Shown: positions 1,569 through 54,640, counted from the first letter of the stretch. The stretch: 64,000 bases of DNA from a virus (IMGVR_UViG_3300042330_000875:1-64000), one strand, 5' to 3'. Numbers and translations: made by a program. The notes: generated from the letters alone by a model not told the origin.

Positions 1569-2147
1569 ATGAATTTAATTGATTTAATGATTAAAGAAAA
1601 TAATACTGTTTATTTGCCTAACAATATTAAAGATGAAATTCTAAAAATATATGATAATATTCAAAATAAATATAGTCAATATTTTAATATCAAATTATAT
1701 TTTTCATCATACGGTAATAACTTTAATATTTTATCATATAATGAGAATAAAATCAATATTGATCATACTGTTGTAAACACACAAAAAATGGGAGATTTAA
1801 AATTAACTTTTTCTCTTAAAAATAATGTTTACGTTATGGATTCTCATTTTACAACTTTAGCAGATTTACAAGAATATAATTTAGACATAAATCCCAATAT
1901 TAAAGACGTATTAGGTAATAATGTTACAAATAATGATCATGTATTGGTTTGTGGTGAAGACAATCATCCATTACGTGGTCCTAAAAAATGTAATATTTTA
2001 AGTAATAAATGGTTTCATTATTCAACATTTAATTCTTATATATTTTTAAGTCATGATAATAATGATTTTCAATTTATTTATAATCCTGATTTACGAGTTA
2101 TTCTATTAGATAATACACAAGTTACATTACATTTATTAAGGAATTAA
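1569..2147 (+). CDS. Hypothetical protein with shared C-terminal tag
   Basis: 192-aa ORF, AAGGA SD, ends DNTQVTLHLLRN. Confidence 0.7.
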   Translation: MNLIDLMIKENNTVYLPNNIKDEILKIYDNIQNKYSQYFNIKLYFSSYGNNFNILSYNENKINIDHTVVNTQKMGDLKLTFSLKNNVYVMDSHFTTLADLQEYNLDINPNIKDVLGNNVTNNDHVLVCGEDNHPLRGPKKCNILSNKWFHYSTFNSYIFLSHDNNDFQFIYNPDLRVILLDNTQVTLHLLRN

Positions 2148-2511
2148 AAAATGGATTTTAATAACATAATTGAAAAATACAATTTACAAGAAATATTTGA
2201 AAATAAAAACATTTTTATTTTGGATGTTAATATATCTAGTGGCATAGTTGAAATGTATCCAGCAATTAATTATAAAAATGTAGCAGAAAAATATTATAAT
2301 TTAAATTTAAATGATTTGCATTGGACTTGGAATAATTTTACATCATTCAAACTGGCTTTAAATCATGTTTTATCTATAATTAGACAAGATAACGCTGATA
2401 ATATATTGAAATATAAAGATAAAATAAAAATTTATAAAATACCTTCTTCTGATAGATATTTTCCATGTTATAAAAAATAATAATATTATTCATAATTATT
2501 AAATTTTTTTA

Positions 2512-3696
2512 TTAAGATAAATGTTTTAAAACATTTACTTTAATGGGCTGAAACAAACAACCTTTATCAGATCGAATATCAGGTAAATTTACTTTCAATC
2601 CATTTCTGATTACAAATTTTTTCATTATATTTGCTGCTGAATTAACATCTGCATTAATTACTTTACCTAATGAACTTTGAAATAAACCAGTTTTTATTCG
2701 TTGGCCCAAATAAATATCATGTTTTTGTATTAATTCATTTGCTAAATAATCACATTTTGATGTGTAACTTTCTTCGATTAATTCTATTTTAATGCCAGCT
2801 AAATCAGCTTTGTATTTTATTTTATCAATTAATTGTTTATAAGGCATAGAGCAAAAAAAGAAATTGTTTTTCTTACCCATACGTGATTGGTTCTGCCAAT
2901 CATCATTATACCCAATAACAATAGTTGCTATTTTATTTGTTATGCAATGATTAATTATATCACGAGAAACTTTATGAATATAATCATTTATTTTAGCAGT
3001 TTTTTTCATAGAAAATTTCTTTTTGTTTTTCTTATTTTTTATTTGTTTGGAATAAAAATGTGAAAAACTTTTTATAATTTTACCAGAATAAAGTCTTGGA
3101 TTATTATTTGTATTAGAAACCAATGTAACTAATTTATTAACTCCTAAATCAATTGAACATAAATTAGTTGGATTTAAAATTGGATTAGTTATATTAGCCT
3201 CATAAACAATAATAATTTTATAAATGTTTTTAGTAATATGTTTTATTTTAATTTGATTAAATTTGTTATTAAAAATTTGTGGTATTTTAATAATGTCATC
3301 TTTTGTGAAATAAATTTCATTGTTTTTTATCGTAGAACATTGATTAGTAAAAGTTAATGTCATTAATTTATTTGTAATTTGTGGTGGATTGGGTTTTCCT
3401 TTTAATAAATTTGAATTATTATACAACCAATTTAATTGTTTATAACTTTTAAATGATTTTTCAACTAATTTTAATGTTTGTTGAGCAGCTTGTGCTTTTA
3501 TTGAATTTTTATAAAATATAGAATTTTTAAAATGTTCATAAAGATCATTATAACTTGGATATTTTTTATTAATTATAAAGAAATTATTAGAAAAAGCCAC
3601 AGCCTCGTTCCAAAGATTGGTATTTGCTTTCAACCAATTAAAAATTAAATTATTTTTGTCTTTATAAATGAAATCATAAGTTAATTGCATTTTCAA
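2512..3696 (-). CDS. tnpB: TnpB RNA-guided endonuclease
   Basis: SIDLGVNKL, IEESYTSKC, INADVNSAANI RuvC motifs. Confidence 0.92.
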   Translation of the reverse strand: MKMQLTYDFIYKDKNNLIFNWLKANTNLWNEAVAFSNNFFIINKKYPSYNDLYEHFKNSIFYKNSIKAQAAQQTLKLVEKSFKSYKQLNWLYNNSNLLKGKPNPPQITNKLMTLTFTNQCSTIKNNEIYFTKDDIIKIPQIFNNKFNQIKIKHITKNIYKIIIVYEANITNPILNPTNLCSIDLGVNKLVTLVSNTNNNPRLYSGKIIKSFSHFYSKQIKNKKNKKKFSMKKTAKINDYIHKVSRDIINHCITNKIATIVIGYNDDWQNQSRMGKKNNFFFCSMPYKQLIDKIKYKADLAGIKIELIEESYTSKCDYLANELIQKHDIYLGQRIKTGLFQSSLGKVINADVNSAANIMKKFVIRNGLKVNLPDIRSDKGCLFQPIKVNVLKHLS

Positions 3697-4285
3697 GTTC
3701 CAAATCTTTTTTAACTAATTCTAATTTTTTCTTTCTTCTTTGACTATAAACTTTCATCGAAAAAGTATGTAAAATCGATATAATTTCATTTAATAATTCT
3801 TGTTCGAGTGTTTGTGAATTTTCAGAATTATTTACAATAATAATTTTAGTACCAAAATTTTTAAATAATTCTTCTAATGTTTTGAAATTTAATCTTGCCA
3901 AACGATCTTTATAACTAATTATAACTTTATCTACTTCATAATTAATAACTTGATTTATTAATTCATTAAGTCCTTTACGATCAATTGTCATACCACTTTC
4001 AATATCGGATATTTCTTGTTTTATTTGAATACCTGAATTTATTGCAAAATTTCTTAATGCATTTAGTTGGTTTTCTAAATCTTTCTTTTGTTTTTGTGTA
4101 CTAACTCGCGCATAAATCACCGAACCACGTTTATTTGTTTGCCCTAATAAAGCATAAACGTCATTTTCATCATAATCATAAAGTTTATTCGGTAATTGTT
4201 TAATTTTTATCTTGTTTTGTTTGACATAATTTGATAATGTAACTCTATGAATACGTAAAATTTTTAATACTTCTTTTGCTTTCAT
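3674..4285 (-). CDS. tnpA: IS607 serine transposase (HTH + resolvase)
   Basis: MKAKEVLKIL HTH, YARVSTQKQKKDLENQ, DRLAR; ATG at 4285 preferred over the TTG at 4300. Confidence 0.93.
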   Translation of the reverse strand: MKAKEVLKILRIHRVTLSNYVKQNKIKIKQLPNKLYDYDENDVYALLGQTNKRGSVIYARVSTQKQKKDLENQLNALRNFAINSGIQIKQEISDIESGMTIDRKGLNELINQVINYEVDKVIISYKDRLARLNFKTLEELFKNFGTKIIIVNNSENSQTLEQELLNEIISILHTFSMKVYSQRRKKKLELVKKDLELENAINL

Positions 4286-4413
4286 AAATATATTTAACAA
4301 AATTAAATATAATACATTTAATATTAATTAATAAATTTAATTTATTAAAACATCATATATTGAATTAAATGATACTGAATACGTTTTATGGTTATTAGAA
4401 CAGGAATAATTAA

Positions 4414-5010
4414 ATGACAGAATTAAATAATTTATTAGTTTTAAAAGAATATGACATAGACGGTTTTACTATTAAAACTATTTGTTTTGTAGAAGAATAT
4501 TATAAAAGATTAGAAAATATTGTTAATAACAATCAAGCTTTAAACAAATTAATTGAATGTTTTGATGTATCATTAATTATTGATGAAACACATAATACTA
4601 AATTTTTTAAAATTAAAAATTTAAAAACTCTTAATAATAAACCTTATTTAATCCAAAATTATAAAGAGTTTAGATCAACTGATTTAGAAAAAATTGATAA
4701 TGTTAAAATAGAATTTACTAATGGTATTTCTTTTTCAACTTTTGAAGAACTAGAAAATATTAAATTAGAAAATTATTTTAAGTCTTTTGTTGATGTAATT
4801 GGTAATAGAATTAATCCAGGTGATTCTATAATTGTTTTTAAAGATGATTATTGTTTTGTAAGCAGTTTTTGGTTTATCATTGAAAATGAAGATGAAACCA
4901 AATATTTCATTAAAGATAATAATGATAATGAATATTATTGGTTTACCGATTATATTCCTATTATGAAAATATCAAATACCGATGCAACTCTATTTATGTT
5001 ACAAAATTAA
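4414..5010 (+). CDS. Hypothetical protein with shared C-terminal tag
   Basis: Ends SNTDATLFMLQN. Confidence 0.7.
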   Translation: MTELNNLLVLKEYDIDGFTIKTICFVEEYYKRLENIVNNNQALNKLIECFDVSLIIDETHNTKFFKIKNLKTLNNKPYLIQNYKEFRSTDLEKIDNVKIEFTNGISFSTFEELENIKLENYFKSFVDVIGNRINPGDSIIVFKDDYCFVSSFWFIIENEDETKYFIKDNNDNEYYWFTDYIPIMKISNTDATLFMLQN

Positions 5011-5409
5011 ATGGAGAAAAAACAAATGCTGATTGAAAAAATAATCAAAAAATATAAATTAGAATATTTATTTAATAATCCAAATATATATTTTTTAGAT
5101 ATTGATGATATTCTTAATAGTGATATTATTCTTTTTACTGGTAATGATTATAAAAATTTTATAATTAAAAACGGTATTTATGATTATAATGATTTAAATT
5201 TTGCGTGGACCAATCAAAAGAAAGACGAAAAGTCAAAATTAAATCAAATAGAAGATTGTTTAATTGATCAAAATACTCATTATTTACTTAATTACAAACA
5301 TAGGATAAAAATACATAGTTTTAATCTTACATCTAGACCTTATTTTTTTCTACCATATATTGAATTAAATGATACTGAATACGTTTTATATTTATTAAGT
5401 AAAAATTAA
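5011..5409 (+). CDS. Hypothetical protein with shared C-terminal tag, paralog of 2151
   Basis: IIKKYKLEYLFNNPNIYFLD vs IIEKYNLQEIFENKNIFILD; near-identical 3' DNA. Confidence 0.75.
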   Translation: MEKKQMLIEKIIKKYKLEYLFNNPNIYFLDIDDILNSDIILFTGNDYKNFIIKNGIYDYNDLNFAWTNQKKDEKSKLNQIEDCLIDQNTHYLLNYKHRIKIHSFNLTSRPYFFLPYIELNDTEYVLYLLSKN

Positions 5410-13348: not shown

Positions 13349-13654
13349 TTATGTGTATTTTAACAACATTTCTACCTGAAAGGTATTTGTTTGATTTGGG
13401 TGATCTTTCAACCAATCATGAATGTTTTTATATTTTTTCCAGTTTAACCAATATTCCAGATAACCATCAGGCCAAATAATTGCTGGACCCGTTAAACGAT
13501 GGCGAAAATAGCGTTTTTTACACCAAACTTTATAACCAGTTAATATATATTCAACTGCCGGTTTATTTTCATTTGGTGAAGAAACTTTATGCCAAGGAAT
13601 ATCTTCTTCGTCATCAGTTGTATATTTTTTTCTATTAACATAATAAATGAACAT
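13349..13654 (-). CDS. HRLTGPA-family paralog, tail type A
   Basis: SSPNENKPA, HRLTGPA, HPNQTNTFQVEMLLKYT. Confidence 0.85.
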   Translation of the reverse strand: MFIYYVNRKKYTTDDEEDIPWHKVSSPNENKPAVEYILTGYKVWCKKRYFRHRLTGPAIIWPDGYLEYWLNWKKYKNIHDWLKDHPNQTNTFQVEMLLKYT

Positions 13655-14037: not shown

Positions 14038-14149
14038 TTCTTTCAAATAGCGGTTTAAAGGCGATTAGAGGCACATTACAGAGGTTTTAGATTGATTTAG
14101 GTATTTGGGTTAGTTAATTAAATTTAATCGGCTTTAAATCGCTTTAAAA
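14038..14149 (-). repeat. Non-coding repeat B, copy 1 (~110 bp)
   Basis: Matches 40762..40871 and 54197..54307. Confidence 0.9.
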
Positions 14150-14503
14150 CTAATTTTGTAAAAACCATAAGACTTTATCGGTTTCTGTAAAAACGCCAAT
14201 ATTATGAAAATAAAGATCGGGGTTTGGATGATCATTAATCCATTCTTTTATGGTTTTATAATATTTTCCATTTAACCAAAATTCTTCTCTTCCATCAGAA
14301 AGAATTCTTGCTGGTCCAGTTAATCGATGCCATATGTGTGATTTTTTACACCAAAGTTTTTTTAAAAATAATTTATTATTTTTATTTGATAAATTTTCAA
14401 ATGCTGGAATTTCTTCATTTGGTGAAGATATAAAAGCATACGGAACATAAAATTTTTCATTAGTTGTAAATTTTTTTCCATCGATATAATAAATAATAGT
14501 CAT
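14150..14503 (-). CDS. HRLTGPA-family paralog, tail type B
   Basis: HPNPDLYF...TETDKVLWFLQN. Confidence 0.85.
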   Translation of the reverse strand: MTIIYYIDGKKFTTNEKFYVPYAFISSPNEEIPAFENLSNKNNKLFLKKLWCKKSHIWHRLTGPARILSDGREEFWLNGKYYKTIKEWINDHPNPDLYFHNIGVFTETDKVLWFLQN

Positions 14504-15663: not shown

Positions 15664-16254
15664 ATGAATACTATTAGTATAAAAGGTAAATTTGTTATTT
15701 TTGATAATTTTTATTTTTATGGCTGCCCACATGATACAGTTGAATTTATAGATGAAAATAATAAAATCCATTTAGTTCGATTAAATTTAACCACAAGAGT
15801 TTCAAAGAATTCCAGTAAAGTTTTTGGTAATTATTTCCAAGTTAGACAACTTGATGTAAAAAACAATTGGAAAAATGTTGATACACTTTTGGATTTTATT
15901 GAAAGTAGAAAAATCATTGGCTACAATCCAACACATTTAATGTTAAATTATCATATTAGAAAAACAGCTAGTAGACAAAAAACAGTTAAAAAAGAAAAAA
16001 AGCAATTAGATTATTATCAAGATTACATGGGTAACAAGGTTGAAATTGGCAATTATGTTTTATTTTCAGTTTATAATGAAAAATTTTTATTAGGAAAAAT
16101 TATTAATTTTGATGCAAAAAGATTGGTTGTGTTACGAGAAGACAATCAAAAAGAATATCGTTTAAATCAAACATCGGTTTTATTAATGTTTGATGAAGGA
16201 AAAAATATCGAAAAATTAAAAACTTCGGTTGTTTTACATTTATTAAAGAAATAA
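15664..16254 (+). CDS. Hypothetical protein with shared C-terminal tag
   Basis: Ends KTSVVLHLLKK. Confidence 0.7.
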   Translation: MNTISIKGKFVIFDNFYFYGCPHDTVEFIDENNKIHLVRLNLTTRVSKNSSKVFGNYFQVRQLDVKNNWKNVDTLLDFIESRKIIGYNPTHLMLNYHIRKTASRQKTVKKEKKQLDYYQDYMGNKVEIGNYVLFSVYNEKFLLGKIINFDAKRLVVLREDNQKEYRLNQTSVLLMFDEGKNIEKLKTSVVLHLLKK

Positions 16255-16463: not shown

Positions 16464-17567
16464 ATGATCACACGCGCTGAAGCCAAATCAATCGTTGAAA
16501 ATAACGCTTGTTTCTTTTGTATTGAAGAAACTGTTGATGGTTATCCAGTTGAAATTTACAATTATGGATTGGCTGGATTGATGGATTTTGAAAACCCTTT
16601 AAAGCAAGATGTTGTTAATATCAACGCTTGGGATATGCGTAGCCTTTGTTTTGTTAAAATTGAAGATAATTGGCAACGTTGGTTTAGCTTGCCTAAATTT
16701 TTCTCATTAAATCAAACTCGTGGATATATGTTAAATGATTTGAAAAATATTCCAGTTGTTGGAGTTTATGAAAAATTCGATGGTTCGTTGATTACTGCAA
16801 TTGTAATCGATAATAAAGTTTATTGTCGTAGTAAAAATTCTTTTTATTCGTCGCAAGCTGTTAAAGCTAATCAATTAATTGAACAAAATATTGAATTGAA
16901 AGATTATATCATTGCTCAATCTAAGTTGGATAACGTTTGTATTTTTGAATTGATTGGTGTTGATCGAGTTGTTGTTGAATATGATAAAATTGAATTGCGT
17001 GGATTATTTTTACGCAATAATTCAACTGGTGTTTTAACTGCATGGGAAAACGATGGTCCTGAAAATTTTATTTCTCAATACCCAACTATTGAAAGTTTGG
17101 TTAATATTGATAAAAAGAATTTTGAAGGTGTTGTTGCGTTATTGGCCGATGGGCGATTAGTTAAGTCAAAAACCAATTGGTATGAAACCATGCACGATGT
17201 TACTGTTGAAAAAACTGATAATTTAAATCGCATTATTGCTTTAGTTTTGGCTGGACATTCGGATGATGCTATTGCATCTTTACAAAACGAAGAACGTAAA
17301 GAAATTATTCGTGAAGTTGAAACTGTTGTATTTTCGGCATATAAAGAAATTATGAAAAACGTAAAAGAAGTTTTTTCTCGTTTACAAACGGAAGATCGTA
17401 AAACTTTAGCTCAAGAAATTTCTGATAAGGGAATTTTTGGTATGGCTTGTCGGCTATTAAAACAAGAAAATATTGATTGGGATAAAGAAATTCGTCAATA
17501 TATTAGTGGTTCAACTAATAGCCGTATTAAAGCTGAAGAATGGTTTAAAAAATGGAAAAATATGTAA
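16464..17567 (+). CDS. RNA ligase, T4 Rnl1-like
   Basis: PKFF, EKFDGSLI (motif I), FELIG, EGVV, KSKT. Confidence 0.85.
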   Translation: MITRAEAKSIVENNACFFCIEETVDGYPVEIYNYGLAGLMDFENPLKQDVVNINAWDMRSLCFVKIEDNWQRWFSLPKFFSLNQTRGYMLNDLKNIPVVGVYEKFDGSLITAIVIDNKVYCRSKNSFYSSQAVKANQLIEQNIELKDYIIAQSKLDNVCIFELIGVDRVVVEYDKIELRGLFLRNNSTGVLTAWENDGPENFISQYPTIESLVNIDKKNFEGVVALLADGRLVKSKTNWYETMHDVTVEKTDNLNRIIALVLAGHSDDAIASLQNEERKEIIREVETVVFSAYKEIMKNVKEVFSRLQTEDRKTLAQEISDKGIFGMACRLLKQENIDWDKEIRQYISGSTNSRIKAEEWFKKWKNM

Positions 17568-17866
17568 TTGATCAAAGTTTTAATTTAGTTAAAATGCAAG
17601 AGTTCAATCTTGCATTTGCAACAGCATCTATTCATTCAAGTAATTTAAATTTATATTTAGAAAAGAAAATTTCAGATATAGATTTTATAAATTCATTAAT
17701 AGAACATTTAGACCCAATTAAAAAAGAAAAATTATATAATATTTTAAAATATACTAATGTTGAAATAAAATTAAGTCGATTTGAATTAAGTTTATATGAA
17801 AATATTTTATTAATTTTAACATTTAAATCTTATGCTGATGAAATTTTATATTTTTTAGGATCATAA
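17552..17866 (+). CDS. Hypothetical protein with shared C-terminal tag
   Basis: Ends SYADEILYFLGS. Confidence 0.65.
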   Translation: MEKYVIDQSFNLVKMQEFNLAFATASIHSSNLNLYLEKKISDIDFINSLIEHLDPIKKEKLYNILKYTNVEIKLSRFELSLYENILLILTFKSYADEILYFLGS

Positions 17867-17868: not shown

Positions 17869-18201
17869 TTGAGATTTATTTATTACATTGATGGTGAAAA
17901 ATTCACAACTGAAGATAAATTCAGTAATAGTCTTTGGAAAAAAATATCATCACCTGATGATAATACGCCTGCATTCGAAACTTCTAATGGTTATAAATTT
18001 TATTGCCATTTAGATGAACAAATATATCGATTAAATGGGCCTGCCGAAATTACTTCTGATGGAAGAGAAGATTTTTATTTAAATGGAAAAAGATATGAAA
18101 CCATAAAAGAATGGATTAATGATCATCCAAATCCTGATCTTTATTTTGATGCAATTGGTTTAAATGAAACCGAACGAGTTTTATGGTTTTTAAAAAAATA
18201 A
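17869..18201 (+). CDS. HRLTGPA-family paralog, tail type B
   Basis: TTG start; YRLNGPA; HPNPDLYFDAIGLNETERVLWFLKK. Confidence 0.8.
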   Translation: MRFIYYIDGEKFTTEDKFSNSLWKKISSPDDNTPAFETSNGYKFYCHLDEQIYRLNGPAEITSDGREDFYLNGKRYETIKEWINDHPNPDLYFDAIGLNETERVLWFLKK

Positions 18202-20032: not shown

Positions 20033-20380
20033 ATGAAATTAAAAGAATATTTAATTGACAAACAAGAAGAATTGGCGCAAACTATTGATGATGGAATAAG
20101 ATCAATTGTTGAAATTAAACAAACATGTGATGATGTACCATTTTCACAAATGGAAGTTCAAGATATTTTAAGAACAATTGCTGGGATGGCAAGAAATCAA
20201 AAAATTTTTGGAAAAGATGCAAATGGTAGATATATTTTTAATCCAAAAGAAACAGTAGAAAAAATTTACATTTCTTGGCTTGATAATAATGTTGAAACTT
20301 GTGAACAATTTCAAAAATTAACAGATCGTTTAATTTTAATATTAGAAAAAATAAACAATAAATTAAGAGGAAAAGAATGA
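20033..20380 (+). CDS. Hypothetical protein
   Basis: 115-aa ORF with AAGGA SD. Confidence 0.7.
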   Translation: MKLKEYLIDKQEELAQTIDDGIRSIVEIKQTCDDVPFSQMEVQDILRTIAGMARNQKIFGKDANGRYIFNPKETVEKIYISWLDNNVETCEQFQKLTDRLILILEKINNKLRGKE

Positions 20381-21398
20381 TTGCTGAATTAGAAATTTTT
20401 AATGGAACAAAATTATATAAAACATATGATTTAAAAGAACTCGATGTTGTCATTGATAATTTTGATTTACTAAAATTGTTAAAATGTGATTTTATTTGTC
20501 AATTACAACGCATTTATTTTCCTTGTACTTTTAGTGAAGAACATGGCGCTTATTTAGAAGTGGCTAAATTGGCTGGTAAGCAATTTATTATTCAATGTAA
20601 AAACAAAGAAGAAGTTGAAAAAATTAACACTCAAATAGTTTTATATTCTTTACAGAAAGATTAATATGAGATTTTATTTTGATTATCCAGATTTTATTGA
20701 TTGTGACAAAAATAAAGTTTATTACGAAGAAAATAAACAAATATTAGAATTTAATAAAGTAATTGAAACTATAGATATTTGGCGACTAATGATGGGTATT
20801 GATATAGAAAAAAAGTATTTTGTTGAATGTAAAAATCAAGAAGAATACGATAAAATATATTTAGATTATACTTTGTTTTTATTAGGAAAAAATTAATGTT
20901 TAAAGATAAACAACCTGAATATATATTTAAATTTGATAATAAACAATTTATTTTTGAATTTTCTGATAAACAAATTTTTTATTATTTGTTTAAAGAAAAA
21001 TGGCATAAATTTGTAAAAACTGATTGTACTTTATTGGACAAAGCAAAAATATCAATTTGTCCCATAGTTGCTATCTATTGTAAAAACAAAGAAGAATTTG
21101 AACAATATCAAACCGATTATACTTTATTTTTATTAAAGGGCGAATAATGAGATTTTATTTTGAAGATATTGAATTTATAGATTATACTCTAAAAGTTTGT
21201 TACTTAGATTTCGGAGATAGTTTTGAAATTTTTGATGAACAACTTTTGATAAGGAAATTAGCAGAGAATATTTATAATATTTTTACTAATATAAATGCTA
21301 AATGGACAGATACTCGAATGTTTATTTTTTGTGATAATCAAAAAGAATATGATCAATTAAATTCAGAATATACTTTATTCTTATTACAGAAAAATTAA
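20377..21398 (+). CDS. Four tandem related small proteins (20377..20664, 20666..20896, 20896..21147, 21147..21398)
   Basis: Shared C[KD]N[KQ][EK]E block followed by the C-terminal tag (IVLYSLQKD, YTLFLLGKN, YTLFLLKGE, YTLFLLQKN). Confidence 0.75.
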
Positions 21399-22221: not shown

Positions 22222-23394
22222 CTACTTTGATTTAGGAATTTTAGAATCAGCACTTGAAACACAACTTTTACTTATGCATTTTGTTGGTTGATCAAATATT
22301 TTAAATCCATTTACTAAATCTCCTAATGGTTGATCAGCACAACTATAGCCGCGTTTAACAATTCCATTTGGTTCACGAATAATAATACTTTGATAACCAG
22401 AATTACAATTCCAATTTTCAAAATTATTAAAATTAAAACTGTTCATACGTTCAGCTTGATCAAGATACCATTTTTTGTTTTCTTCATCGGTTAATTCTAC
22501 TTGCATTATTTGTGGAATTTTTTCTTGATTTTCTAAAACATCTTGTAATTTTTTATATTTTGGACGGGTTGGAATTTTATTATTTTTATCTAATGCTTGT
22601 TGTGTAAAGTCTCGTTGTGGCATACCATTATAAAGACGATTTAACATGTCTTGTGAATATCCATCAACAATCTTTGTAGCATTATAATTGCTTTGTGGTT
22701 TTAATGTTGTATTAATCCCCAATTCATGAAAATAAAGTGCATTTTCCCAATCGAATTCAAATAAATCAGGACGCATAACCATATTAATTGTTACTTGTAT
22801 ATCATTTTCTTGACAATATAATAATTTTTCAATAAATTTTTCTTTTTTAGCAAATTCAGAATGAAAACTAGCTGTAATACTTACACGATGTAAATTTTTA
22901 GTTACTTCAACATATTCTTTTAACCATTTTAAATTTTTACTCATATTAGTTGTCATATGCACACTTTGATAATTTGTTTTTTCCAAATGAGTTGTATAAT
23001 GATTTAAAATTTTTAAATAATCTGGATGTGCAGTAGGTTCACCACCAGAAAAACTAAAATGAAATGAATTAAAATTGTTTTCATTAGCTTGATAGATAAT
23101 TTCATCAATTGTTTTTGTAATTACATCTAATGGTCGAAAATCTTTAATGTGTGTACTGGCGTAGCCCCAGCAGTAGGAGCAATGGGCATTTTCATATTTT
23201 TTCCCATTTACTTCAATAATTTTTTTAGATTTTTCATCAGGTTTTTTTAAAAAATTAAAATTGCAATATCTTTGCAAAATCCAACTGACATTGAATAGAT
23301 CACGCTCTAACATAGTGCGTTGACCAAATGATTTTATCTTATCAAAGGGAATTTTAGTAAAGTCATATTGTGACCATTTTAAATTATCGTTCAT
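22222..23394 (-). CDS. Radical SAM protein with extended CX27CX2C motif and C-terminal twitch-like Cys cluster
   Basis: FSGGEPT, MTTN, SFHSEF; C-terminal C...C...CISKSC. Confidence 0.85.
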   Translation of the reverse strand: MNDNLKWSQYDFTKIPFDKIKSFGQRTMLERDLFNVSWILQRYCNFNFLKKPDEKSKKIIEVNGKKYENAHCSYCWGYASTHIKDFRPLDVITKTIDEIIYQANENNFNSFHFSFSGGEPTAHPDYLKILNHYTTHLEKTNYQSVHMTTNMSKNLKWLKEYVEVTKNLHRVSITASFHSEFAKKEKFIEKLLYCQENDIQVTINMVMRPDLFEFDWENALYFHELGINTTLKPQSNYNATKIVDGYSQDMLNRLYNGMPQRDFTQQALDKNNKIPTRPKYKKLQDVLENQEKIPQIMQVELTDEENKKWYLDQAERMNSFNFNNFENWNCNSGYQSIIIREPNGIVKRGYSCADQPLGDLVNGFKIFDQPTKCISKSCVSSADSKIPKSK

Positions 23395-23408
23395 AAATAA
23401 TATTTAGT

Positions 23409-24470
23409 TTAACTTTTAAATAATTTTGTCAATTTAAAAAAGTCTTGTTTTCTCAATTGATCTAATTTATTGTTGTTTTCTAAAAAATTATTCCAATTTC
23501 CTTCTTTGATATTCAACAAATATTTTTTTATTTTATCAAATTGATTTTCAGAATAATAATCAATTAAATATTGTTTTTTATCAAATGAAATATGTTTTAA
23601 GTTTAAATAATCAGGATGTTCTAAAATATTCCAATAAATTTCACGATCACACCAATTATCTAATTCTTTTAAAAATTCGATATTGGTTATTTGAACTGTG
23701 CAGTGAATTTTTATTTCAGCTTTAAGTTGTTTTATAGTTTCATAATTTTTTAAAAATTGATTCCATTTTGCAGGATAACGAATATACTCATAAACATTTT
23801 CAATTCCATCAACCGACAAATGTAATTTTAAATTAGAAAATTTTTCCCATAATTTTAAAACTTTATCAGGTAATACAGTTAAATTTGTATTGTACTTTAA
23901 TTCTATATTAGTTTTGTTATTATCGATCAACCATTGTAATATATCAATATGATGAGGGTTCAATAAAGGTTCTCCACCTGTAAAATAAATTGCTTCAATA
24001 AATTGTAAATTATTTTTTAATTGAACAAAAAATTCTTGGTTTTTATCCCAATTGTAAAGTTTAGTTTGTTCATTCCACATTTTTTGATGATCTTCTTGCC
24101 AAGCAGAACTAGAATAGCCATTACACATTCTACAACGTAAATTACAACTATTACCTAATCTTAAATCTAAATAAACAATTTCTGTTTTTTCATTGTTTTT
24201 TATTTTTTTTAAATGAACAGAAAATTTTTCATTATAAGCTAATCTTGCACTTTTTAAACCAAAACTTTCTTCATTAAAACATCGTTTACAAACTGTTGGT
24301 TTTTTATTTTCCAACATTTCATTTTTAATTGATTTAAGGTAATTTTCTTTGTATTCTTCTATTTGATCAAAGCGATAATTTGAAGATGATTGTGCATTAC
24401 AGCAAACACGTAATTTTCCTGTTGGAGTAGTTGCTAAATGAATCCAAGGTAAAACACATAAATTATTCAT
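23409..24470 (-). CDS. Radical SAM protein with N-terminal twitch-like cluster
   Basis: CNLRCRMC, FTGGEP, SVDG. Confidence 0.9.
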   Translation of the reverse strand: MNNLCVLPWIHLATTPTGKLRVCCNAQSSSNYRFDQIEEYKENYLKSIKNEMLENKKPTVCKRCFNEESFGLKSARLAYNEKFSVHLKKIKNNEKTEIVYLDLRLGNSCNLRCRMCNGYSSSAWQEDHQKMWNEQTKLYNWDKNQEFFVQLKNNLQFIEAIYFTGGEPLLNPHHIDILQWLIDNNKTNIELKYNTNLTVLPDKVLKLWEKFSNLKLHLSVDGIENVYEYIRYPAKWNQFLKNYETIKQLKAEIKIHCTVQITNIEFLKELDNWCDREIYWNILEHPDYLNLKHISFDKKQYLIDYYSENQFDKIKKYLLNIKEGNWNNFLENNNKLDQLRKQDFFKLTKLFKS

Positions 24471-25539
24471 CGATCCAACCTACTATTTCTTTGTCGATAA
24501 CATCTTTATAATTTAAATTTCTAGTTGTATTAAAATAGTTTAAAGCAAATTTTAATTGTTCTTTATCAAATTTATTTTCTTGTTGAATAAAATTAACTAA
24601 TTCATCGTATTGATTGTGATTTTTTAATAATTGTAATTTGTTTAAAATGTATTCTTTTTTATCAGTTATATTGGCTTGGAAATATTCAGGCTTTCTTAAT
24701 ATCTCAAAATTTATTGGGATATTAAAATATTCATTTATTTTACCTAATTCACAAATATTAAAAAGCTGTACTGTACAATTAATCAATTGTTTTATATGTT
24801 GAAATTGTTGTAATTTAATTAAATTTTCTTCTATAATAGAAAATTTCAAAGGATAACGAATATATTTAAAAACATTATCTAAACCATCAATTGAGATTTT
24901 TATTTTGGCTTTGAGTTTATCAGTTAAATCAAAAAATTCTTCATCCCAAACAGATAAATTTGTTACAATATTTAATTGTGGGCTTAAATTATTTTCAACT
25001 AAATGTTGTAATACTTTTTTATTATTAATATCTAATAAAGGTTCGCCACCTCGCAAATTAATTCTTTTTGCATTTTTTAAAAAAGGTTTAACTATATCAA
25101 AATTTAATTCTGATTTTAAATTTTTGCCTTTATAATGAATTGGTACATTTTTATTTTTAACCTCTGATGCTATTGCCGAAGAACAACGTGGCGTACACAT
25201 AATACATTTACTGTTACAAATATTAGAAAAATTTAAATCTAAAATTTCTGCTTGATCAAAAAATTCAGTTAATTTGTTTGGTAAAATAAATTGTTCATTT
25301 ACAGTTAATCTTAAAGATTTTTTTCCTAATTCTTCATCTTTTTCACAACGCAAACAATTTTTTGGAAATTTATTATTAATAAAATCATTTCTAATTTGTT
25401 TCATAATTTCAGAATTATGGCGATTTTCAATGGGAATATTTTCAAAAGGCATATTTATTACAAAACCACACGGTACAAACGTGCCATCTGAATGAAAACC
25501 ATAACTTTTCCAAGGCATTACACATTTAACCATTATCAA
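24463..25539 (-). CDS. Radical SAM protein with N-terminal twitch-like cluster
   Basis: CNSKCIMC, RGGEP, SIDG. Confidence 0.9.
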   Translation of the reverse strand: MIMVKCVMPWKSYGFHSDGTFVPCGFVINMPFENIPIENRHNSEIMKQIRNDFINNKFPKNCLRCEKDEELGKKSLRLTVNEQFILPNKLTEFFDQAEILDLNFSNICNSKCIMCTPRCSSAIASEVKNKNVPIHYKGKNLKSELNFDIVKPFLKNAKRINLRGGEPLLDINNKKVLQHLVENNLSPQLNIVTNLSVWDEEFFDLTDKLKAKIKISIDGLDNVFKYIRYPLKFSIIEENLIKLQQFQHIKQLINCTVQLFNICELGKINEYFNIPINFEILRKPEYFQANITDKKEYILNKLQLLKNHNQYDELVNFIQQENKFDKEQLKFALNYFNTTRNLNYKDVIDKEIVGWIDE

Positions 25540-26311: not shown

Positions 26312-26318
26312 TATCTAT

Positions 26319-34430: not shown

Positions 34431-35397
34431 TCCAAACTATAAAAATAATATTGAAATAAAAAATAATTGGAATTGGTATGGATTACTTGGTTTAAAAAGA
34501 TTAATTCCTGAAATAGAAATAACTGAAAATATCGAACAAGCAGATTTTGTTTGGATTGAAAACTCACCTAATAAAAGAGTTAGTAAAAGAAAAGATTTTC
34601 CTGTTTATTCAAATAAAACACATATTTTAAATGCAGGTTTAGAATATGAAAATACTAAATATGATTTACCAAAAAATTATATTGTGTTTGATTGTAATGA
34701 AAAAAACAATCAAATAGATTTTAACTTATGTAAATTAACAAGTTGGTTAGATGGTCAATTAGTCACAGGAAATAAAGAAATAAAATTTAATTTTGGATTT
34801 CGTCGCCCTGATATTCATAGAAACTCATTGGAAAAATTAATAAATAATTTTTCTGTTTATCATTATCGTTGTGAAATTCCCGAAAAAATAAACGATGATA
34901 TTTTTTTAAATTCAAAATATGCCGATTTATTTCAAGAAAATATATCGGATAATATCTTTACAGATATTGCTGGTGTTCACAATCAAGTTCCTGAATCTTT
35001 TGTTAACATGTATAAAGAAACAAATATATCAATTGTAATGGAAACAATGTTTTGGCATGATTTATGCTTTGATAGTGAAAAAGTTCATCGAGAGTTAGCT
35101 TGTGGAATGATACCAATTATTTTTGGACCTATTGGTATTGTTGAAAAATTAAAAAATCAAGGATTTATTTTTCCTGAACATTTATGGGATCATAGTTATG
35201 ATAAGATTATTGATCCATTAAAACGATTTGATTTTCTCGTTGACCAATTATTTGAAATAGAAAAAACATCTAATAGAGAATTTGATTTATGGAAAAAAGA
35301 ATTTGAAATAATTGGTTTTAAAAATCATCAAACAGCTAAACGGAATTTAAAAAATGATATTGATAATCTTAGAAAAATTTTTCATAATTTTCTGTAA
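34417..35397 (+). CDS. Glycosyltransferase-like protein, paralog of preceding gene
   Basis: SIVMET, SEKV, PIIFG, WDHSYD. Confidence 0.55.
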   Translation: MKIFDPNYKNNIEIKNNWNWYGLLGLKRLIPEIEITENIEQADFVWIENSPNKRVSKRKDFPVYSNKTHILNAGLEYENTKYDLPKNYIVFDCNEKNNQIDFNLCKLTSWLDGQLVTGNKEIKFNFGFRRPDIHRNSLEKLINNFSVYHYRCEIPEKINDDIFLNSKYADLFQENISDNIFTDIAGVHNQVPESFVNMYKETNISIVMETMFWHDLCFDSEKVHRELACGMIPIIFGPIGIVEKLKNQGFIFPEHLWDHSYDKIIDPLKRFDFLVDQLFEIEKTSNREFDLWKKEFEIIGFKNHQTAKRNLKNDIDNLRKIFHNFL

Positions 35398-36283
35398 TAT
35401 CGTTTTTTAACAAAAATAAAACTTCATCTGTTTCATTAAAAAAGCTAAATGATAAGTAGAATGTATATATTATTTTACCATCTTCACAATCATCAATTAT
35501 ATTTGTATGTTCTATGTGATAGTTTACGTTCATGTGCCCAATTAACGAATTAATATCAATTAAAAATTTATTAATTAATTTATTATTTAATATTGGGAGT
35601 TTGTTGTTGAGTTGATAAAAACCGTGATTGGAATTAATAACTATTGAGCATAAACCTGATCCATCTTTATCTAATTTTCCCATAGCCGAAACGGGATAAA
35701 TTTTTTCATCACCGATAAAGAATTTTAATCTTGTTTGAGAAACCACAATATTTCATCCAAATTGTTTTTAAATTCGATTGTTATTCTTATTTTATTAAAC
35801 CATTCATTATCATAATTTATTGTACCATATTTTTCAATGTTAATATTGATATTTTCCGGCAAAGTATCAATATCATCAACAATTATTTGATTTATTTCTT
35901 TATCTGTATGATAAATTGGTAACATATAAGCTAATTGGTTTAATTTTTTGTCTGAAGTTAAGATTAATTCTGGATAACATTCAATTATGTAATATTTTGT
36001 CATTATAAATTCTTTCATTTTGTAATAGCCATAATATTTCATCTACTTCATTATTAAATTTAAAAGAAATACTAATAAATTTCAAAGAAATACAGTCATA
36101 TTCTATTTTTAATAGACTATATATTATATTTTTAGGATAATTAATTTTAAAAATATGGTTAAGTTTTTTTATATGATCTTGATCACTTGTATTATCATTT
36201 AACTCAATGAAATACCCAAAAGCATATTCTTTGTTTTTTGTAAAAGTTACAGGGTTTATAGAATATATAAAATATTCATTCAT
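35369..36283 (-). CDS. Three small related proteins (35369..35746, 35725..~36003, 35981..36283) with C-terminal tag
   Basis: Share FxNxxDE[VI]L[FW][LF]L. Confidence 0.7.
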
Positions 36284-40761: not shown

Positions 40762-40871
40762 TTCTTTCAAATAACGGTTTAATCGCGTTTAGAAGCATGT
40801 TACAGGGGTTTTGAATTGATTTGTGTAATTGAGTAAGTAATTAGCTTAAACGGCTTTAAATCGCTTTAAAA
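40762..40871 (-). repeat. Non-coding repeat B, copy 2
   Basis: See copy 1. Confidence 0.9.
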
Positions 40872-41204
40872 TTAATTTTGCAAATACCAAAGAATTTTAT
40901 CTGTTTCAGTAAAAATACCAATGGCATCAAAATACAGATCGGGATTTGGATGATCTTTAAGCCAATCATGAATATTTTCATAATATTTTCCATTAAGATA
41001 AAATTCTTTTGTTCCATCTGACCAAATTCTAGCTGGTCCCGTTAATCTATGATAATTTATTTCTTTTTCACACCAAAATTTAAAACCATCAGCTAAACCT
41101 TCAATTGCTGGCGTTTGTTCATTTAAAGATGATACATTAATAAATAGAATTTTTGAATAATATTTCGTTTTAAACTTTTCACCATCAATATAATAAACAT
41201 ACAT
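40872..41204 (-). CDS. HRLTGPA-family paralog, tail type B
   Basis: Start MYVYYIDG after AAGGA; ends TETDKILWYLQN. Confidence 0.85.
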   Translation of the reverse strand: MYVYYIDGEKFKTKYYSKILFINVSSLNEQTPAIEGLADGFKFWCEKEINYHRLTGPARIWSDGTKEFYLNGKYYENIHDWLKDHPNPDLYFDAIGIFTETDKILWYLQN

Positions 41205-41232
41205 TATTTTATTCCTTATAAAAGATTTGCAG

Positions 41233-43344
41233 CTAATTAGCTGCAAATCCAAATTGTTTAGTAAATTCTTTTTTATTTTCCGATTCAATTTTCAAAAGAA
41301 TTTCTGGTGTTTCTGTTGCACCAAAATCAATAAATTCTTTTACTGTTTCAAAATCGCCAGGAGCTAAAACATATTGATCATTAAGAATAAATTCATCGGG
41401 TTCTCGATCCCAATACATTTTAAACATTTTTAATTTTTGATCTTTGTTCATATAATTAAATTTAATCTTAATTTGAAACCGTCTTAAAAATGCTTGTTCT
41501 AAAGATTTTTCATAATTGGTTGTAATTGCAAAATCGCATTTACGCAATTGTGTTTGAACTAAAAATTCATTTGCAATACTTTTCATATATTCGGCGCTTT
41601 TACCTTCTTTATTTGTTAAGAAAGTTTCAGCTTCATCAATTAATAAAATTGAATCTTCTTGATAAGCTTGTTCAAAACTTTCGGCAATATTTTGTTCAGT
41701 TTCTCCATAATAAGCAGAAATTAAGTCACTTGGTTTTTTAACCAAAACATTTTTGTTAAATTTTTCACCTAAATAATGAACTAATTGACTTTTACCTGTT
41801 CCACTTGGGCCTGATAAAAGCATATTCCATTTTTTATCAACTGATTTTAATTGATCAACAATTGAATTAACATTAACGTTTGTATTCAATAAACTAAGAT
41901 CATAAACTTTTGAAGCTTCGGTTAATTTAAATTCTCGTTTACGCCCCCAACGATTCATACGGTCGATTTGTTGAACAACATCAATTACGTTTTCTTTTGG
42001 GTTTAAAGCGATAATTTCACAAACTCGTTGAATATCCCAAGGAGTAATGTCGAATGTTTTTGCAAATTGTTTCTTTTGTGTTTCATTAAAGATTTTTTCA
42101 CCGTATTTATTCCAAGTTTTAATGCGTGTTTTTGCACTATGAACTTTAAATTCGGCTGTATATTTCATTCTTCTTAAAAATGAAGTTTCCATATAAACAT
42201 GATTGGCAGTAAAGATTGTTGGGATTGTTGCTTTTTCTAATAAATTATTAACAAACAATTTACTAAATTCTTTATCTTCTCTTGTTAAATCTTCTAATTC
42301 ATCAAAAAGCAAAATAGTATTTTTTTTATTTTTAAAGAATTTTTGAGCTAACACAAAATCACCCAAGCGCTGATCTCTTTTCTTTTCACCCAATGAACTT
42401 TCGCCAACTCGAATTAATTTATATCCAAGAGAGTTTGCTAATGCGCCTGCATATTCGGTTTTACCTGTTCCTGGTTTTCCCCATAATAAAAAGTTTGTTC
42501 CGCGATCATTTTTCTTAATTAAATTTTTAAAAATATTATGAGGAATTGTATCATCATAATCATCTAAACTTAATACTGATTTTTGATCAGTTGGGAAGAA
42601 AATATTTTCAATATCTTTTTTATTGATTTCAGGTGTATCTAAAATTTGTTTTAAACGGTCATCAAATTCAAATGATAAACAACTAAACATCATATCAGAT
42701 TGTTGATAAGTTTTTTTGAAAAACCCAAAACGAAACAAATCAGTATTGCCTAAAAGAATATTTTTTATTTTTTGTTGATCAACTTCAAGAACAATTGATA
42801 ATGCGCGATAATCGCTACCAATTTTCTTAATAAAATAATCAAGATATTCTTTTACGTACCAAAGAGTTGTTTGTTCATTTTCATACATTAAATAAAGTAT
42901 TTTCATTTCTAATTGGTCAAGTGAAATACTTTTACCAAATTTTTTAATATTTTTTGGTAATTTAAAGTTTTCAACAAGCCAATTGTCTTTAATTGTATTA
43001 ACATAAAATTCTAAATCGAAATTTTGAATAAATTGTTCATTTCTACTTTTAATAAAAATATTTTTTTGTTTACCTTCGCGCTCGCCAACTGGATTTTCTT
43101 TTTCATGTTTCATTAATTCATCTTGAAAATTTTGAAACGCTGTTTGTCCTAAAAGTTTTTCATCTCCATGTTCGAATATAAATTCTCTAATAGCAAATGG
43201 TTGTTGAACATAAAGATGATCGAATAATTTATAAAAAATATTTTTTAATAATGTGGATACAATATTCACGTCTGGTTGTCCTTTACCTAAAATTAATTGT
43301 CTTATCCTGTGACCATGTAATTCTTCTATTCGCATTACTTGCAT
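41233..43344 (-). CDS. Double-AAA+ ATPase
   Basis: GKPGTGKT/LLFDE and GPSGTGKS/LLIDE; AFLRRF. Confidence 0.88.
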   Translation of the reverse strand: MQVMRIEELHGHRIRQLILGKGQPDVNIVSTLLKNIFYKLFDHLYVQQPFAIREFIFEHGDEKLLGQTAFQNFQDELMKHEKENPVGEREGKQKNIFIKSRNEQFIQNFDLEFYVNTIKDNWLVENFKLPKNIKKFGKSISLDQLEMKILYLMYENEQTTLWYVKEYLDYFIKKIGSDYRALSIVLEVDQQKIKNILLGNTDLFRFGFFKKTYQQSDMMFSCLSFEFDDRLKQILDTPEINKKDIENIFFPTDQKSVLSLDDYDDTIPHNIFKNLIKKNDRGTNFLLWGKPGTGKTEYAGALANSLGYKLIRVGESSLGEKKRDQRLGDFVLAQKFFKNKKNTILLFDELEDLTREDKEFSKLFVNNLLEKATIPTIFTANHVYMETSFLRRMKYTAEFKVHSAKTRIKTWNKYGEKIFNETQKKQFAKTFDITPWDIQRVCEIIALNPKENVIDVVQQIDRMNRWGRKREFKLTEASKVYDLSLLNTNVNVNSIVDQLKSVDKKWNMLLSGPSGTGKSQLVHYLGEKFNKNVLVKKPSDLISAYYGETEQNIAESFEQAYQEDSILLIDEAETFLTNKEGKSAEYMKSIANEFLVQTQLRKCDFAITTNYEKSLEQAFLRRFQIKIKFNYMNKDQKLKMFKMYWDREPDEFILNDQYVLAPGDFETVKEFIDFGATETPEILLKIESENKKEFTKQFGFAAN

Positions 43345-51089: not shown

Positions 51090-51698
51090 TTATCGAAGAG
51101 CGGGTGTAATTTGGTCAATTAAACCAATTTCAAGTGCCTGTTCTGGCGTCATCCAATAATCATGGCGCATTGTTTCTTTAAAATAATTATAATCTTTGCC
51201 TTTAAATCCACAATGTTTAACATATTTTTGTGTAAGAAGATCGTTTAAACGTCGCATTTCTTCAAGATTAATTTCCATATCATTTAATTTGCCGCCGCCC
51301 CCGCCATGTTGTGCAATTTGATGAATCATTATAGTTGAATTGGGAAGTGCGTATCTGTGATTTGGCTCCCCGGACATAAGCAGGAACGATCCCATGCTGG
51401 CACACAAAGATACGCCATAGGTATAAATTGGGCTTTTGCTGGCTAAAATACAGTCGTATAATCCCAGGCCCGCCAGAACTGAGCCGCCTTGAGAATTAAT
51501 ATAAAAATGAATAGGTTTTGTATCATTTTCATAGTTTAAATAAAAAATTTGTGCAATCAAAGATGATACAGCCTGATCTGTTACTTGTCCATTTAAAAAA
51601 ATAGTGCGATTACGTAATAACATTGAAAAAATATCCATAGCTCGCTCTCCGCGAGAATCGCTTTCAATTACCATAGGTACTAAACTATTCACATTCAT
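51090..51698 (-). CDS. clpP: ClpP protease subunit
   Basis: LVPMVIE, YINSQGG, CASMG (Ser), IMIHQ (His), DYWM. Confidence 0.93.
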   Translation of the reverse strand: MNVNSLVPMVIESDSRGERAMDIFSMLLRNRTIFLNGQVTDQAVSSLIAQIFYLNYENDTKPIHFYINSQGGSVLAGLGLYDCILASKSPIYTYGVSLCASMGSFLLMSGEPNHRYALPNSTIMIHQIAQHGGGGGKLNDMEINLEEMRRLNDLLTQKYVKHCGFKGKDYNYFKETMRHDYWMTPEQALEIGLIDQITPALR

Positions 51699-51712: not shown

Positions 51713-52006
51713 CTAAATATAAATTTTACTTTGTAATAATAACATAACTTCATCGGTTGAATCTTCCAACCAGATATAAACTTTTTCATTCCATCGTTGA
51801 CAATGAAACTTTCCTTTACATTTATTGTCTAAATGTTTTTTAATTAAATTATCTAAAATATATTCTGATTGATAATCTCCTTGATAATCTATACTAATAA
51901 AATAATAATTATTTTTTACATTATCATTAAATGCTTGAAATTTGGTTTCTTCAAATGCTTGAATAGGTAATTCAATTTTTCTCAATCTATTTGCAGATTT
52001 AATCAT
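51713..52006 (-). CDS. Hypothetical protein with shared C-terminal tag
   Basis: Ends DSTDEVMLLLQSKIYI. Confidence 0.65.
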   Translation of the reverse strand: MIKSANRLRKIELPIQAFEETKFQAFNDNVKNNYYFISIDYQGDYQSEYILDNLIKKHLDNKCKGKFHCQRWNEKVYIWLEDSTDEVMLLLQSKIYI

Positions 52007-53336: not shown

Positions 53337-53388
53337 GACGTTTCCGTCTTGATAAATTGATAATAGAAAATTTTTCGTTTTCTGTCAA
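53337..53388 (-). promoter_or_regulatory. Sigma70 promoter plus GACG-GAAA-CGTC leader hairpin
   Basis: TTGACA-N17-TATTAT. Confidence 0.8.
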
Positions 53389-53405
53389 GTGATTTTTTAA
53401 ATTTA

Positions 53406-53485
53406 ATTTTTGTTAAGTTGTAGTTGTAGAAACTCATTCAAAAAACCTATATTTTCTGCGGCTCTTCGTGAATAGAAAATTTATT
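53406..53485 (-). repeat. Non-coding repeat A, copy 3
   Basis: See copy 1. Confidence 0.9.
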
Positions 53486-53519
53486 GATATAATCAAATTA
53501 TAGGTATTGGATACGTATT

Positions 53520-53891
53520 TTAGTTATTAATTTCTGATATTTCAAAATAGTTTTTATTTTTTAAATTAAAATAATCTTTATAAACTCCCTTAACTATTTC
53601 ATAAATTAATTTTGTTAATCGATAGGTTTCTTTATTAGAGATAAATTTATCATTTACAATTAATAAATGTTCGTTCTTTTGAAAAACATGTTCGATTGCA
53701 ATAGTTAATTTTAAATTTTTATCGATAAATTTATTATTAGATAAATCAACTAAGTAAACAGTAAAATCTTTAATATAAATTGATGATATTATTTTTTTAT
53801 TATTTTGCATACAATTTTGATTTATTTCAGCAATTAATTTTTTAATTTTAGAAAAATAATATTTTATTAATAATCGATAAATTATGACCAT
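53520..53891 (-). CDS. Hypothetical protein inside cassette 3
   Basis: 123-aa ORF overlapping the paralog stop. Confidence 0.5.
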   Translation of the reverse strand: MVIIYRLLIKYYFSKIKKLIAEINQNCMQNNKKIISSIYIKDFTVYLVDLSNNKFIDKNLKLTIAIEHVFQKNEHLLIVNDKFISNKETYRLTKLIYEIVKGVYKDYFNLKNKNYFEISEINN

Positions 53892-54190
53892 TTTAGTAAC
53901 ATTTCAATTTGAAAGGTATTATCTTGATTTGGATGAAATGATAACCAATATTTAATATCATTATAATAACAAACGGAGTTTAAATAAAAATATTTTTTAC
54001 CATCAGGAAAAATTTCTGCGGGTCCAGTTAATCGATGATAAGCTCTTAATTTTTTACACCAAATTTTTTCACCTGTTAAAGTATCTTCATACGCAGGTAT
54101 TTGTTCATTTGGTGAAGAAATATAATCCCAAGGTACTTTTTTCTTTTTTGATTTTATAATTTTTTTACCATCAATATAATAAATTTCCAT
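53882..54190 (-). CDS. HRLTGPA-family paralog, tail type A
   Basis: HRLTGPA, FQIEMLLKWS. Confidence 0.85.
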   Translation of the reverse strand: MEIYYIDGKKIIKSKKKKVPWDYISSPNEQIPAYEDTLTGEKIWCKKLRAYHRLTGPAEIFPDGKKYFYLNSVCYYNDIKYWLSFHPNQDNTFQIEMLLKWS

Positions 54191-54196
54191 TTATCA

Positions 54197-54307
54197 TTCT
54201 TTCAAATAGCGGTTTAATCGCGTTTAGAGGCACATTGCAGAGGTTTTAGATTGATTTAGGTAATTTGGATAACCAATTAAGACAATAGGCTTTAAATCGC
54301 TTTAAAA
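54197..54307 (-). repeat. Non-coding repeat B, copy 3
   Basis: See copy 1. Confidence 0.9.
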
Positions 54308-54640
54308 CTAATTTTGTAAAAACCATAAAATTCTATCGGCTTCATTCATACCTAATGTATCAAAATAAAGATCGGGATTTGGATGATCTTTAAGCCAATC
54401 ATTTACATTTTCATATTTTTTTCCATTTAAATAAAATTCTTTAAATACATCAGAACAAATCCTGGCAGGACCAGTTAAACGATGTAAAACTTTATCTATT
54501 TGATACCAAAGTTTATATCCAGTTTCTAAGTTTTGACAAGCAGGCGTATTTTCATCTGGTGACGAAATATAATACTGAGGTATTTCTTTATAATTATAAG
54601 TTTTAAATTTTTCACCATCTATATAATAAATATATTTCAT
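54308..54640 (-). CDS. HRLTGPA-family paralog, tail type B
   Basis: HPNPDLYF...NEADRILWFLQN. Confidence 0.85.
   Translation of the reverse strand: MKYIYYIDGEKFKTYNYKEIPQYYISSPDENTPACQNLETGYKLWYQIDKVLHRLTGPARICSDVFKEFYLNGKKYENVNDWLKDHPNPDLYFDTLGMNEADRILWFLQN

Follow-up and report, generated by a model that had tools for sequence, protein, structure and literature searches.

Why should dozens of small phage proteins, most of them without recognizable relatives, end in the same short sequence? The question is raised by a 64,000-nucleotide stretch of viral DNA (IMGVR_UViG_3300042330_000875:1-64000; the window in what follows), in which a preliminary description had listed a shared C-terminal tag on at least 18 small proteins between positions 1569 and 54640. 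The window covers the opening 64 kb of one viral contig of 146,077 bp (27.6% G+C), which CheckV estimates to be ~45% complete and which is thus a fragment of a jumbo phage. Shared terminal tags served by one reader are familiar as degrons, clamp-binding tails, and cargo-loading peptides, and are usually restricted to a few known proteins. In this phage fragment, ~18% of the genes end in one helix, and most of them encode fast-evolving orphans of which it is the sole conserved feature. We find that the tag is real, C-terminal, and helical, that it is under selection at the protein level, and that it occurs on unrelated folds and is exchangeable with other tails in one family. It is apparently undescribed (no paper containing the motif strings was found in the published literature) and looks like an address or docking tag.

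All 18 of the listed C-termini are present in the window. The positions originally given for them are the left ends of genes rather than the positions of tags. A regular expression for the eight-residue core, run over all six frames, found 20 matches in the window and 40 in the whole contig; all but two in each case (18 and 38) lie no more than 13 codons from a stop. The proteome test set consisted of 242 non-overlapping predicted proteins (45,158 residues) from the 146-kb contig. In this set the strict motif has 35 matches, none of them internal and none farther than 13 residues from the C-terminus, against 0.34 matches in residue-shuffled proteomes, so that chance is excluded. The motif is therefore strictly C-terminal, as had been proposed, and not a sequence that occurs equally often inside proteins. 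The invariant last leucine is followed by two residues in 23 cases and by three in eight; extra residues past the tag are found in the carriers starting at 35369 (11), 35981 (12), and 51713 (5). The consensus spans ~12 residues, with an N-cap (N/D-x-T-D/E) leading into x-[VI]-L-[W/Y/F]-x-L-[K/Q]-N and the stop.

A scoring matrix of 12 columns, trained solely on carriers outside a large paralog family (HRLTGPA, described below), gives a bimodal distribution: 44 proteins score 16–31 bits, with the match in every case at the C-terminus, and no other protein exceeds 12 bits. It is these 44 of 242 proteins that give the figure of ~18% of genes. The tags of HRLTGPA type B, left out of the training, score 23–30 bits. 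The tag also extends beyond this contig: in four related, tag-bearing IMG/VR fragments (207 kb in all, each only 6–33% complete) it closes 35 of 234 open reading frames (ORFs) and is never internal.

A conserved DNA element lying across the gene ends, such as a promoter or recombination site, is ruled out by variable synonymous codons and flanks. The invariant leucine is encoded by TTA (29 cases), TTG (8), and CTC (1), the other tag leucine by TTA (20), CTT (10), TTG (5), CTA (1), and CTG (1), and the tag threonines by ACC (14), ACA (9), and ACT (9); this synonymous variation tracks the codon usage of the genome. The DNA 3′ of the carrier stop codons is in some cases the next gene's start codon and in others a terminator hairpin or a promoter-like box. 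Because the synonymous codons vary and the downstream DNA differs, selection must act at the protein level. The sole downstream DNA shared in the window is an exact 20-nucleotide repeat (TTTTAAAGCGATTTAAAGCC, minus strand) placed directly after the stop codons of three type B genes (14130–14149, 40852–40871, and 54288–54307; 0 expected by chance). A fourth, near-identical copy lies behind a frameshifted type B gene at contig position ~65270.

How closely are the carriers related to one another? They had been called mostly unrelated, which is an overstatement for the 18 listed, about half of which belong to four paralog groups. The rest are orphans, and clearly different folds are present. An all-against-all comparison delineated the HRLTGPA family, whose 40 members of 100–110 residues share one core (..HRLTGPA..FWLNGK.Y..DWLKDHPN), bear three alternative tails, and span positions 13349–59333 of the window as well as the rest of the contig. 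Type A ends in ..QDNAFQVEMLLKY, the K variant in ..QDETFKKEM.., and type B, with the tag, in ..PDLYFDAIGLNETDRVLWFLQN. Four of the listed carriers are of type B: 14150–14503 (minus strand; core 14159–14182), 17869–18201 (plus; core 18169–18192), 40872–41288 (minus; core 40881–40904), and 54308–54640 (minus; core 54317–54340). Tails A and K are confined to the family, and the B tag alone also occurs outside it. The type A tail, suggested earlier as a possible variant, can be discarded as such, given that it scores at most 5 bits on the tag matrix and never appears outside its own family. The contig holds ~19 type A/K genes and ~22–25 carriers from outside the family. HRLTGPA is also the best-conserved gene family (55–70% identity) between the contig and otherwise barely related phage fragments, the pattern that a mobile or strongly selected gene would show.

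Outside this family, three carriers on the plus strand can be aligned across their final 85 residues and have G-N-x-V-x-x-G-D-x-V-L-V and the tail in common. They are proteins of 192 residues (1569–2147; core 2115–2138; 23.0 bits; ending in ..DNTQVTLHLLRN), 198 residues (4414–5010; core 4978–5001; 25.4 bits), and 196 residues (15664–16254; core 16222–16245; 18.6 bits, a weak variant with histidine at the aromatic position). The C-terminal domain of the first is SH3/Tudor-like, as in the other two. A profile of this domain matches only seven proteins among 1.84 billion. A homolog search with the 15664 protein found one 94%-identical relative, and comparison with its distant orthologs shows the tag to be far better conserved than the carrier bodies: An ortholog of 28% identity shares 10 of 14 tag-region residues, distant orthologs keep LKTN..L..LK, and P0093 also retains the tail.

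Several of the remaining carriers stand in tandem. The four small ones at 20377–21398 (plus strand; 95, 76, 83, and 83 residues; cores 20629–20652, 20861–20884, 21112–21135, and 21363–21386) are paralogs that share C[KD]N.[EK]E...tag, and the three at 35369–36283 (minus strand; 125, 105, and 100 residues; cores 35408–35431, 35737–35760, and 36023–36046) are orphans, two of them with the 11–12 residues past the tag noted above. Further tandem arrays lie at contig positions 105505/105826, 110855–112361, and 121794/122170. In the gene at 35981–36283, the post-tag extension overlaps the start of the next gene, and an ATG straddles the codons directly behind ..LLQN, which suggests a lost stop codon. 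Two other orphan carriers stand singly: one of 104 residues at 17552–17866 (plus; core 17834–17857) and one of 97 residues at 51713–52006 (minus; core 51734–51757, followed by five residues), the latter between a Nudix gene and ClpP. The item listed as 2151/4354 does not represent the end of a gene of its own. An IS607-like element (region 2481–4353, with a helix-turn-helix serine recombinase at 3674–4300 and TnpB/OrfB_IS605 at 2512–3696, both on the minus strand) sits inside a phage gene resembling that at 5011, splitting the N-terminal part (2151–2480) from a tag-bearing remnant of ~20 codons (~4341–4409, plus strand; core 4374–4397; ending in ..YIELNDTEYVLWLLEQE). The paralog of this split gene is the 132-residue carrier at 5011–5409 (plus; core 5374–5397).

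Scans of carriers against Pfam and PHROG gave no significant match, and, in keeping with the earlier observation, none of those scanned is a recognizable enzyme or structural protein. The best weak hints pointed to an SH3-like domain in 15664 (PHROG 2251 at 1.6e-5; RimP SH3 at 0.04). Once the tails were trimmed, body-versus-body BLAST and iterated profiles found no relations, and 39 of 43 non-family carriers (contig plus relatives) could not be linked by profiles to any other member of the set. The protein encoded at 35725–36042 has no relative but itself among 5.8 billion proteins.

Structure models extend this comparison beyond the reach of sequence. The type B protein at 54308–54640 was modeled with AlphaFold from a 61-sequence alignment at a mean predicted local distance difference test (pLDDT) score of 92, as a beta-hairpin array followed by three helices (residues 79–84, 89–96, and 100–109), the last of which is the tag. 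Its nearest structural matches are uncharacterized or MORN-like proteins of uncultured phages, jumbo phage Atu_ph07, and giant viruses, and the hairpin array resembles the MORN/DUF7666 proteins of giant viruses and Atu_ph07. Fold searches of the PDB with type B returned weak junctophilin- or Rhs-like beta-hairpin arrays only (Z no higher than 3.4; Foldseek E ≥2). The C-terminal 91 residues of the 4414 protein (AlphaFold, nine sequences) were modeled as an all-beta barrel with a mean pLDDT of 77 (84–88 in the core), best matching chromo, Tudor, and PWWP domains (Foldseek probability 0.9–0.99, E about 0.3); this agrees with matches to Tudor-like repeat proteins and with the PHROG/RimP-SH3 hint. 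The tag is a helix in this model too (residues 84–90), with a pLDDT of only 44–54, and thus is not confidently packed.

The tag is accordingly helical in both AlphaFold models, as the preliminary description had supposed. One common fold for all carriers is rejected, given the hairpin array plus helices of type B versus the barrel of 4414 and bodies that iterated profiles do not relate. For these two families, then, the tag is not simply the last helix of a single fold, although that may hold among the short orphans. As modeled, at least two clearly different folds carry the tag, in addition to many orphan bodies, and on the HRLTGPA core it is one of three swappable tails, the only one found outside the family. 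Different folds and alternative tails on one core together support the portability that had been claimed for it.

What, then, keeps the tag constant? Its sequence is fixed while the bodies diverge beyond recognition, so the constraint on it probably lies outside each carrier, that is, in a common partner; a helix in contact with its own carrier alone should change along with it, and the constancy of the tag points to a constraint acting in trans. The explanation we favor, in which our confidence falls a little short of even, is that the tag is a portable module specific to a phage clade, serving as a docking or address peptide read by one shared partner in trans. A short, amphipathic, capped helix would close small, fast-evolving phage proteins of different folds, one shared partner would recognize the helix in trans, and this would let one machine handle ~45 different proteins as a class. 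We are more doubtful of the further proposal that a single phage-encoded machine (a Clp unfoldase-protease, a MoxR/vWA pair, or tag-less HRLTGPA paralogs) reads the helix, which would make this a virus-encoded addressing system that sorts, times, or destroys a protein class amounting to about a fifth of the genes. If a reader exists, the tag would point to the common handler, would give a handle on unannotated “dark matter” genes of jumbo phages by grouping dozens of them into one pathway, and would serve experimenters as a portable label. Should its role be only structural, the reuse of such a mini-module across folds would remain striking. The interpretation originally offered, a portable sorting or docking helix, is therefore partly supported: The helix and its portability are borne out, and the receptor and the packaging, scaffold, and degron roles remain proposals.

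Several observations weigh against a shared reader. In the type B model the tag is the third helix of a folded C-terminal subdomain (pLDDT 86–90) and not a floppy tail, and there it could be purely structural. Chromo-like barrels normally end in a helix. Most orphan tags are preceded by a hydrophobic, strand-like segment, and these segments are more alike than decoys (p = 1e-9), which is consistent with strand and helix forming an integral unit. Two orphan carriers have Atlas models, both of them low-confidence alpha+beta sandwiches, and on that basis many of the short orphan carriers may be one diverged superfamily. The partner itself remains a list of candidates (the Clp set, the MoxR/vWA pair, and the type A paralogs). 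Searches for ClpP, Clp ATPases, and DUF2201_N (the peptidase-vWA protein) in the four related fragments, which are 6–33% complete and total 207 kb, found no match, and Pseudomonas phage PA5oct, which has the MoxR/vWA pair, shows no such tag and no strong enrichment of C-terminal 3-mers.

The structural points among these are also what favors the main rival, which we consider rather unlikely. Here strand and helix would form an intramolecular cap, conserved above all other structural elements in one or a few very fast-evolving superfamilies of small proteins that expanded by tandem duplication, and the helix would have been fused once to the HRLTGPA core. The cap would lend each protein stability, with no common reader. 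The arrangement of carriers in tandem arrays is in its favor, as are the hydrophobic-alternation pattern common to the segments before the tag, the confident packing of the type B tag, and the sandwich form of both orphan models. However, a self-packing helix should covary with its body, and on dissimilar bodies the tag keeps its T, D/E, L, aromatic, and L positions. It also occurs on at least two clearly different modeled folds, its placement in the barrel family is of low confidence, and its end is near constant, mostly two to three residues ahead of the stop.

Other explanations are more specific. Recognizable genes on the contig include those for a gp32-type single-stranded DNA-binding protein, a UvsX recombinase (51% identical to its PA5oct counterpart), NAD synthetase, tail-fiber proteins, ClpP, several AAA+ proteins, five radical-SAM enzymes, and a deoxynucleoside monophosphate kinase. 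Nearly all the remaining genes are small ORFs without a family match, and head genes are absent from the fragment.

It is distinctly unlikely, in our judgment, that docking takes the specific form of a degron or tether that delivers early proteins to the phage ClpP and its ClpX-like or ClpA-like unfoldases for scheduled removal or remodeling. The machinery is present: ClpP lies at 51090–51698 (minus strand; PF00574, E 4e-53), a ClpA-like protein of 739 residues with Clp_N and two AAA+ modules at contig positions 81251–83470, a ClpX-like protein of 414 residues at contig positions 118215–119459, and a third, double-AAA+ protein of 703 residues at 41233–43344 (minus strand). An ssrA-type degron would thus have a cognate ClpXP here. 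One carrier (51713–52006) is encoded directly upstream of clpP. C-terminal degrons and tethering tails are established for ClpX (PMC10638403). Against this, the last two to three residues of the tag are polar and variable (QN, KN, KK, QKD, GKN, GS, and others), and three carriers run on for 5–12 residues, which makes an ssrA-like degron unlikely; the defined, nonpolar, free, and unstructured end of such a degron (e.g., LAA-COOH) is not seen in a tag that is helical and partly packed. Nor were Clp genes found in the 207 kb of (incomplete) tag-bearing relatives.

Similarly improbable is a client tag captured by the vWA domain of a metallopeptidase-vWA protein and worked by a MoxR ATPase. The corresponding genes, for a MoxR-type AAA+ ATPase, a 183-residue protein partly similar to MoxR, and a DUF2201_N/DUF2201 metallopeptidase-vWA protein, run from 61855 to the end of the window at 64000 and on to contig position 64908 (plus strand), and such a pair has been described for group 2.2 jumbo phages (Iyer et al. 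2021, PMC7824862). The authors of that work proposed a role in virion assembly, which counts against a client tag, as do the presence of the same MoxR/peptidase-vWA arrangement in untagged PA5oct and the failure to find the pair in the tag-bearing relatives (incomplete). The PA5oct vWA-peptidase gene is apparently annotated as an HNH endonuclease.

We regard docking of carrier to carrier as very unlikely. The tag helix would bind the tag-less type A protein in trans, filling the place that it takes in cis in type B, or carriers would be zipped into hetero-oligomers by their tags. Type B has the same core and the same first C-terminal helices as type A, with the tag as an additional third, and the numbers of type A/K genes and of non-family carriers on the contig (given above) also speak for such an arrangement, but there is no one-to-one pairing in gene order. 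A complex prediction with two copies of type B scored 0.02, which counts neither way.

A signal for capsid loading or co-injection would have its analogs in encapsulin cargo-loading peptides and the T4 capsid-targeting sequence, since HK97-fold shells can receive diverse cargo by way of short peptides at protein ends. By this analogy alone it is highly improbable: ~45 cargo proteins per half genome would far exceed any known packaged set, and no protease-type cleavage motif lies near the tag. The T4 capsid-targeting sequence itself, an N-terminal leader that the prohead protease cleaves at L-x-E, is rejected as a counterpart, the tag being C-terminal in all 44 carriers.

Finally, it is scarcely credible that the tag is a recognition site for modification by the phage radical-SAM enzymes (NF033640 family; 195–1541, 23409–24470, 24463–25539, and 27130–28176), for although the gene at 195–1541 adjoins the carrier at 1569–2147, and in one relative two carriers directly precede such an enzyme, adjacency of this kind is expected by chance when 18% of genes are tagged, three of the four enzymes lie in a 13-kb biosynthetic cluster without carriers, and type B has its tag packed as a helix.

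The radical-SAM genes deserve mention in their own right. Four of the proteins have an N-terminal twitch domain (NF033640, 209–389 bits), a fifth radical-SAM enzyme is also present, and together they occupy 195–1541 and 22222–28176; most of the genes fall within the 13-kb cluster, which also holds paired amidinotransferase-fold genes. A promoter-like box (TTGACA-N7-8-AAAATTTTCTATATT) stands 50–65 nucleotides upstream of many small genes between contig positions 67 and 132 kb, with few examples in the window (37731 and 49823). A looser form of the box gave 24 matches versus 7.8 expected, mostly intergenic. A scan of 13–22.5 kb for the sigma-70 consensus gave 70 sites versus 69 expected, and thus is uninformative in DNA of 25% GC.

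How does the tag compare with known systems? A preprint (bioRxiv 10.1101/2024.02.24.581848) describes chaperone-addiction (ChAD) elements, C-terminal extensions of antitoxins in toxin-antitoxin-chaperone systems, as portable and as making diverse proteins clients of one dedicated partner. On that description the likeness is a portable C-terminal segment on diverse proteins with one dedicated partner. However, ChAD elements exceed the tag in length and lack its form of a capped 10-residue helix, and no SecB-like chaperone was seen here. NorQ-NorD type docking offers another parallel, since a MoxR AAA+/metallopeptidase-vWA pair is present at 61855–64908 and MoxR-vWA systems act on clients, but PA5oct has the pair without the tag. 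With ssrA-type ClpX/ClpA degrons and SspB tethering tails, the tag has in common that it is a C-terminal peptide carried by many proteins of a phage that encodes ClpP, ClpX-like, and ClpA-like proteins. It differs in that conservation lies on an internal helical face, while the residues at the very end are polar and variable and a further 5–12 can follow.

The peptides that load cargo into encapsulins and microcompartments are likewise short (10–18 residues), terminal, portable, and found on unrelated cargo; they are served by one reader, and in microcompartments they are amphipathic and helical. No encapsulin or bacterial microcompartment (BMC) shell gene was noticed among the proteins scanned, although no search was aimed at shells. 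The tag is unrelated in sequence to the GSL-type encapsulin consensus, and its carriers are far more numerous and are small proteins without known function rather than enzymes. The spacing of a PIP-box or clamp-binding peptide (Q-x-x-[LIVM]-x-x-[FWY][FWY] or Q-L-x-L-F) is not that of the tag, in which T-[DE]-x-[VI]-L-[WYF]-x-L-[KQ]-N has helical hydrophobic spacing, and neither a PF09116 match nor a gp45-type clamp was found on this ~45% complete contig. The clamp-binding and acidic tails of phages (T4 gp43, gp33, and gp55; T7 gp2.5 and gp4) show the same general design, with several unrelated proteins of one phage that end alike and dock on one hub. Those tails are found on a handful of known DNA-handling proteins, whereas the tag described here is found on ~45 small proteins without known function.

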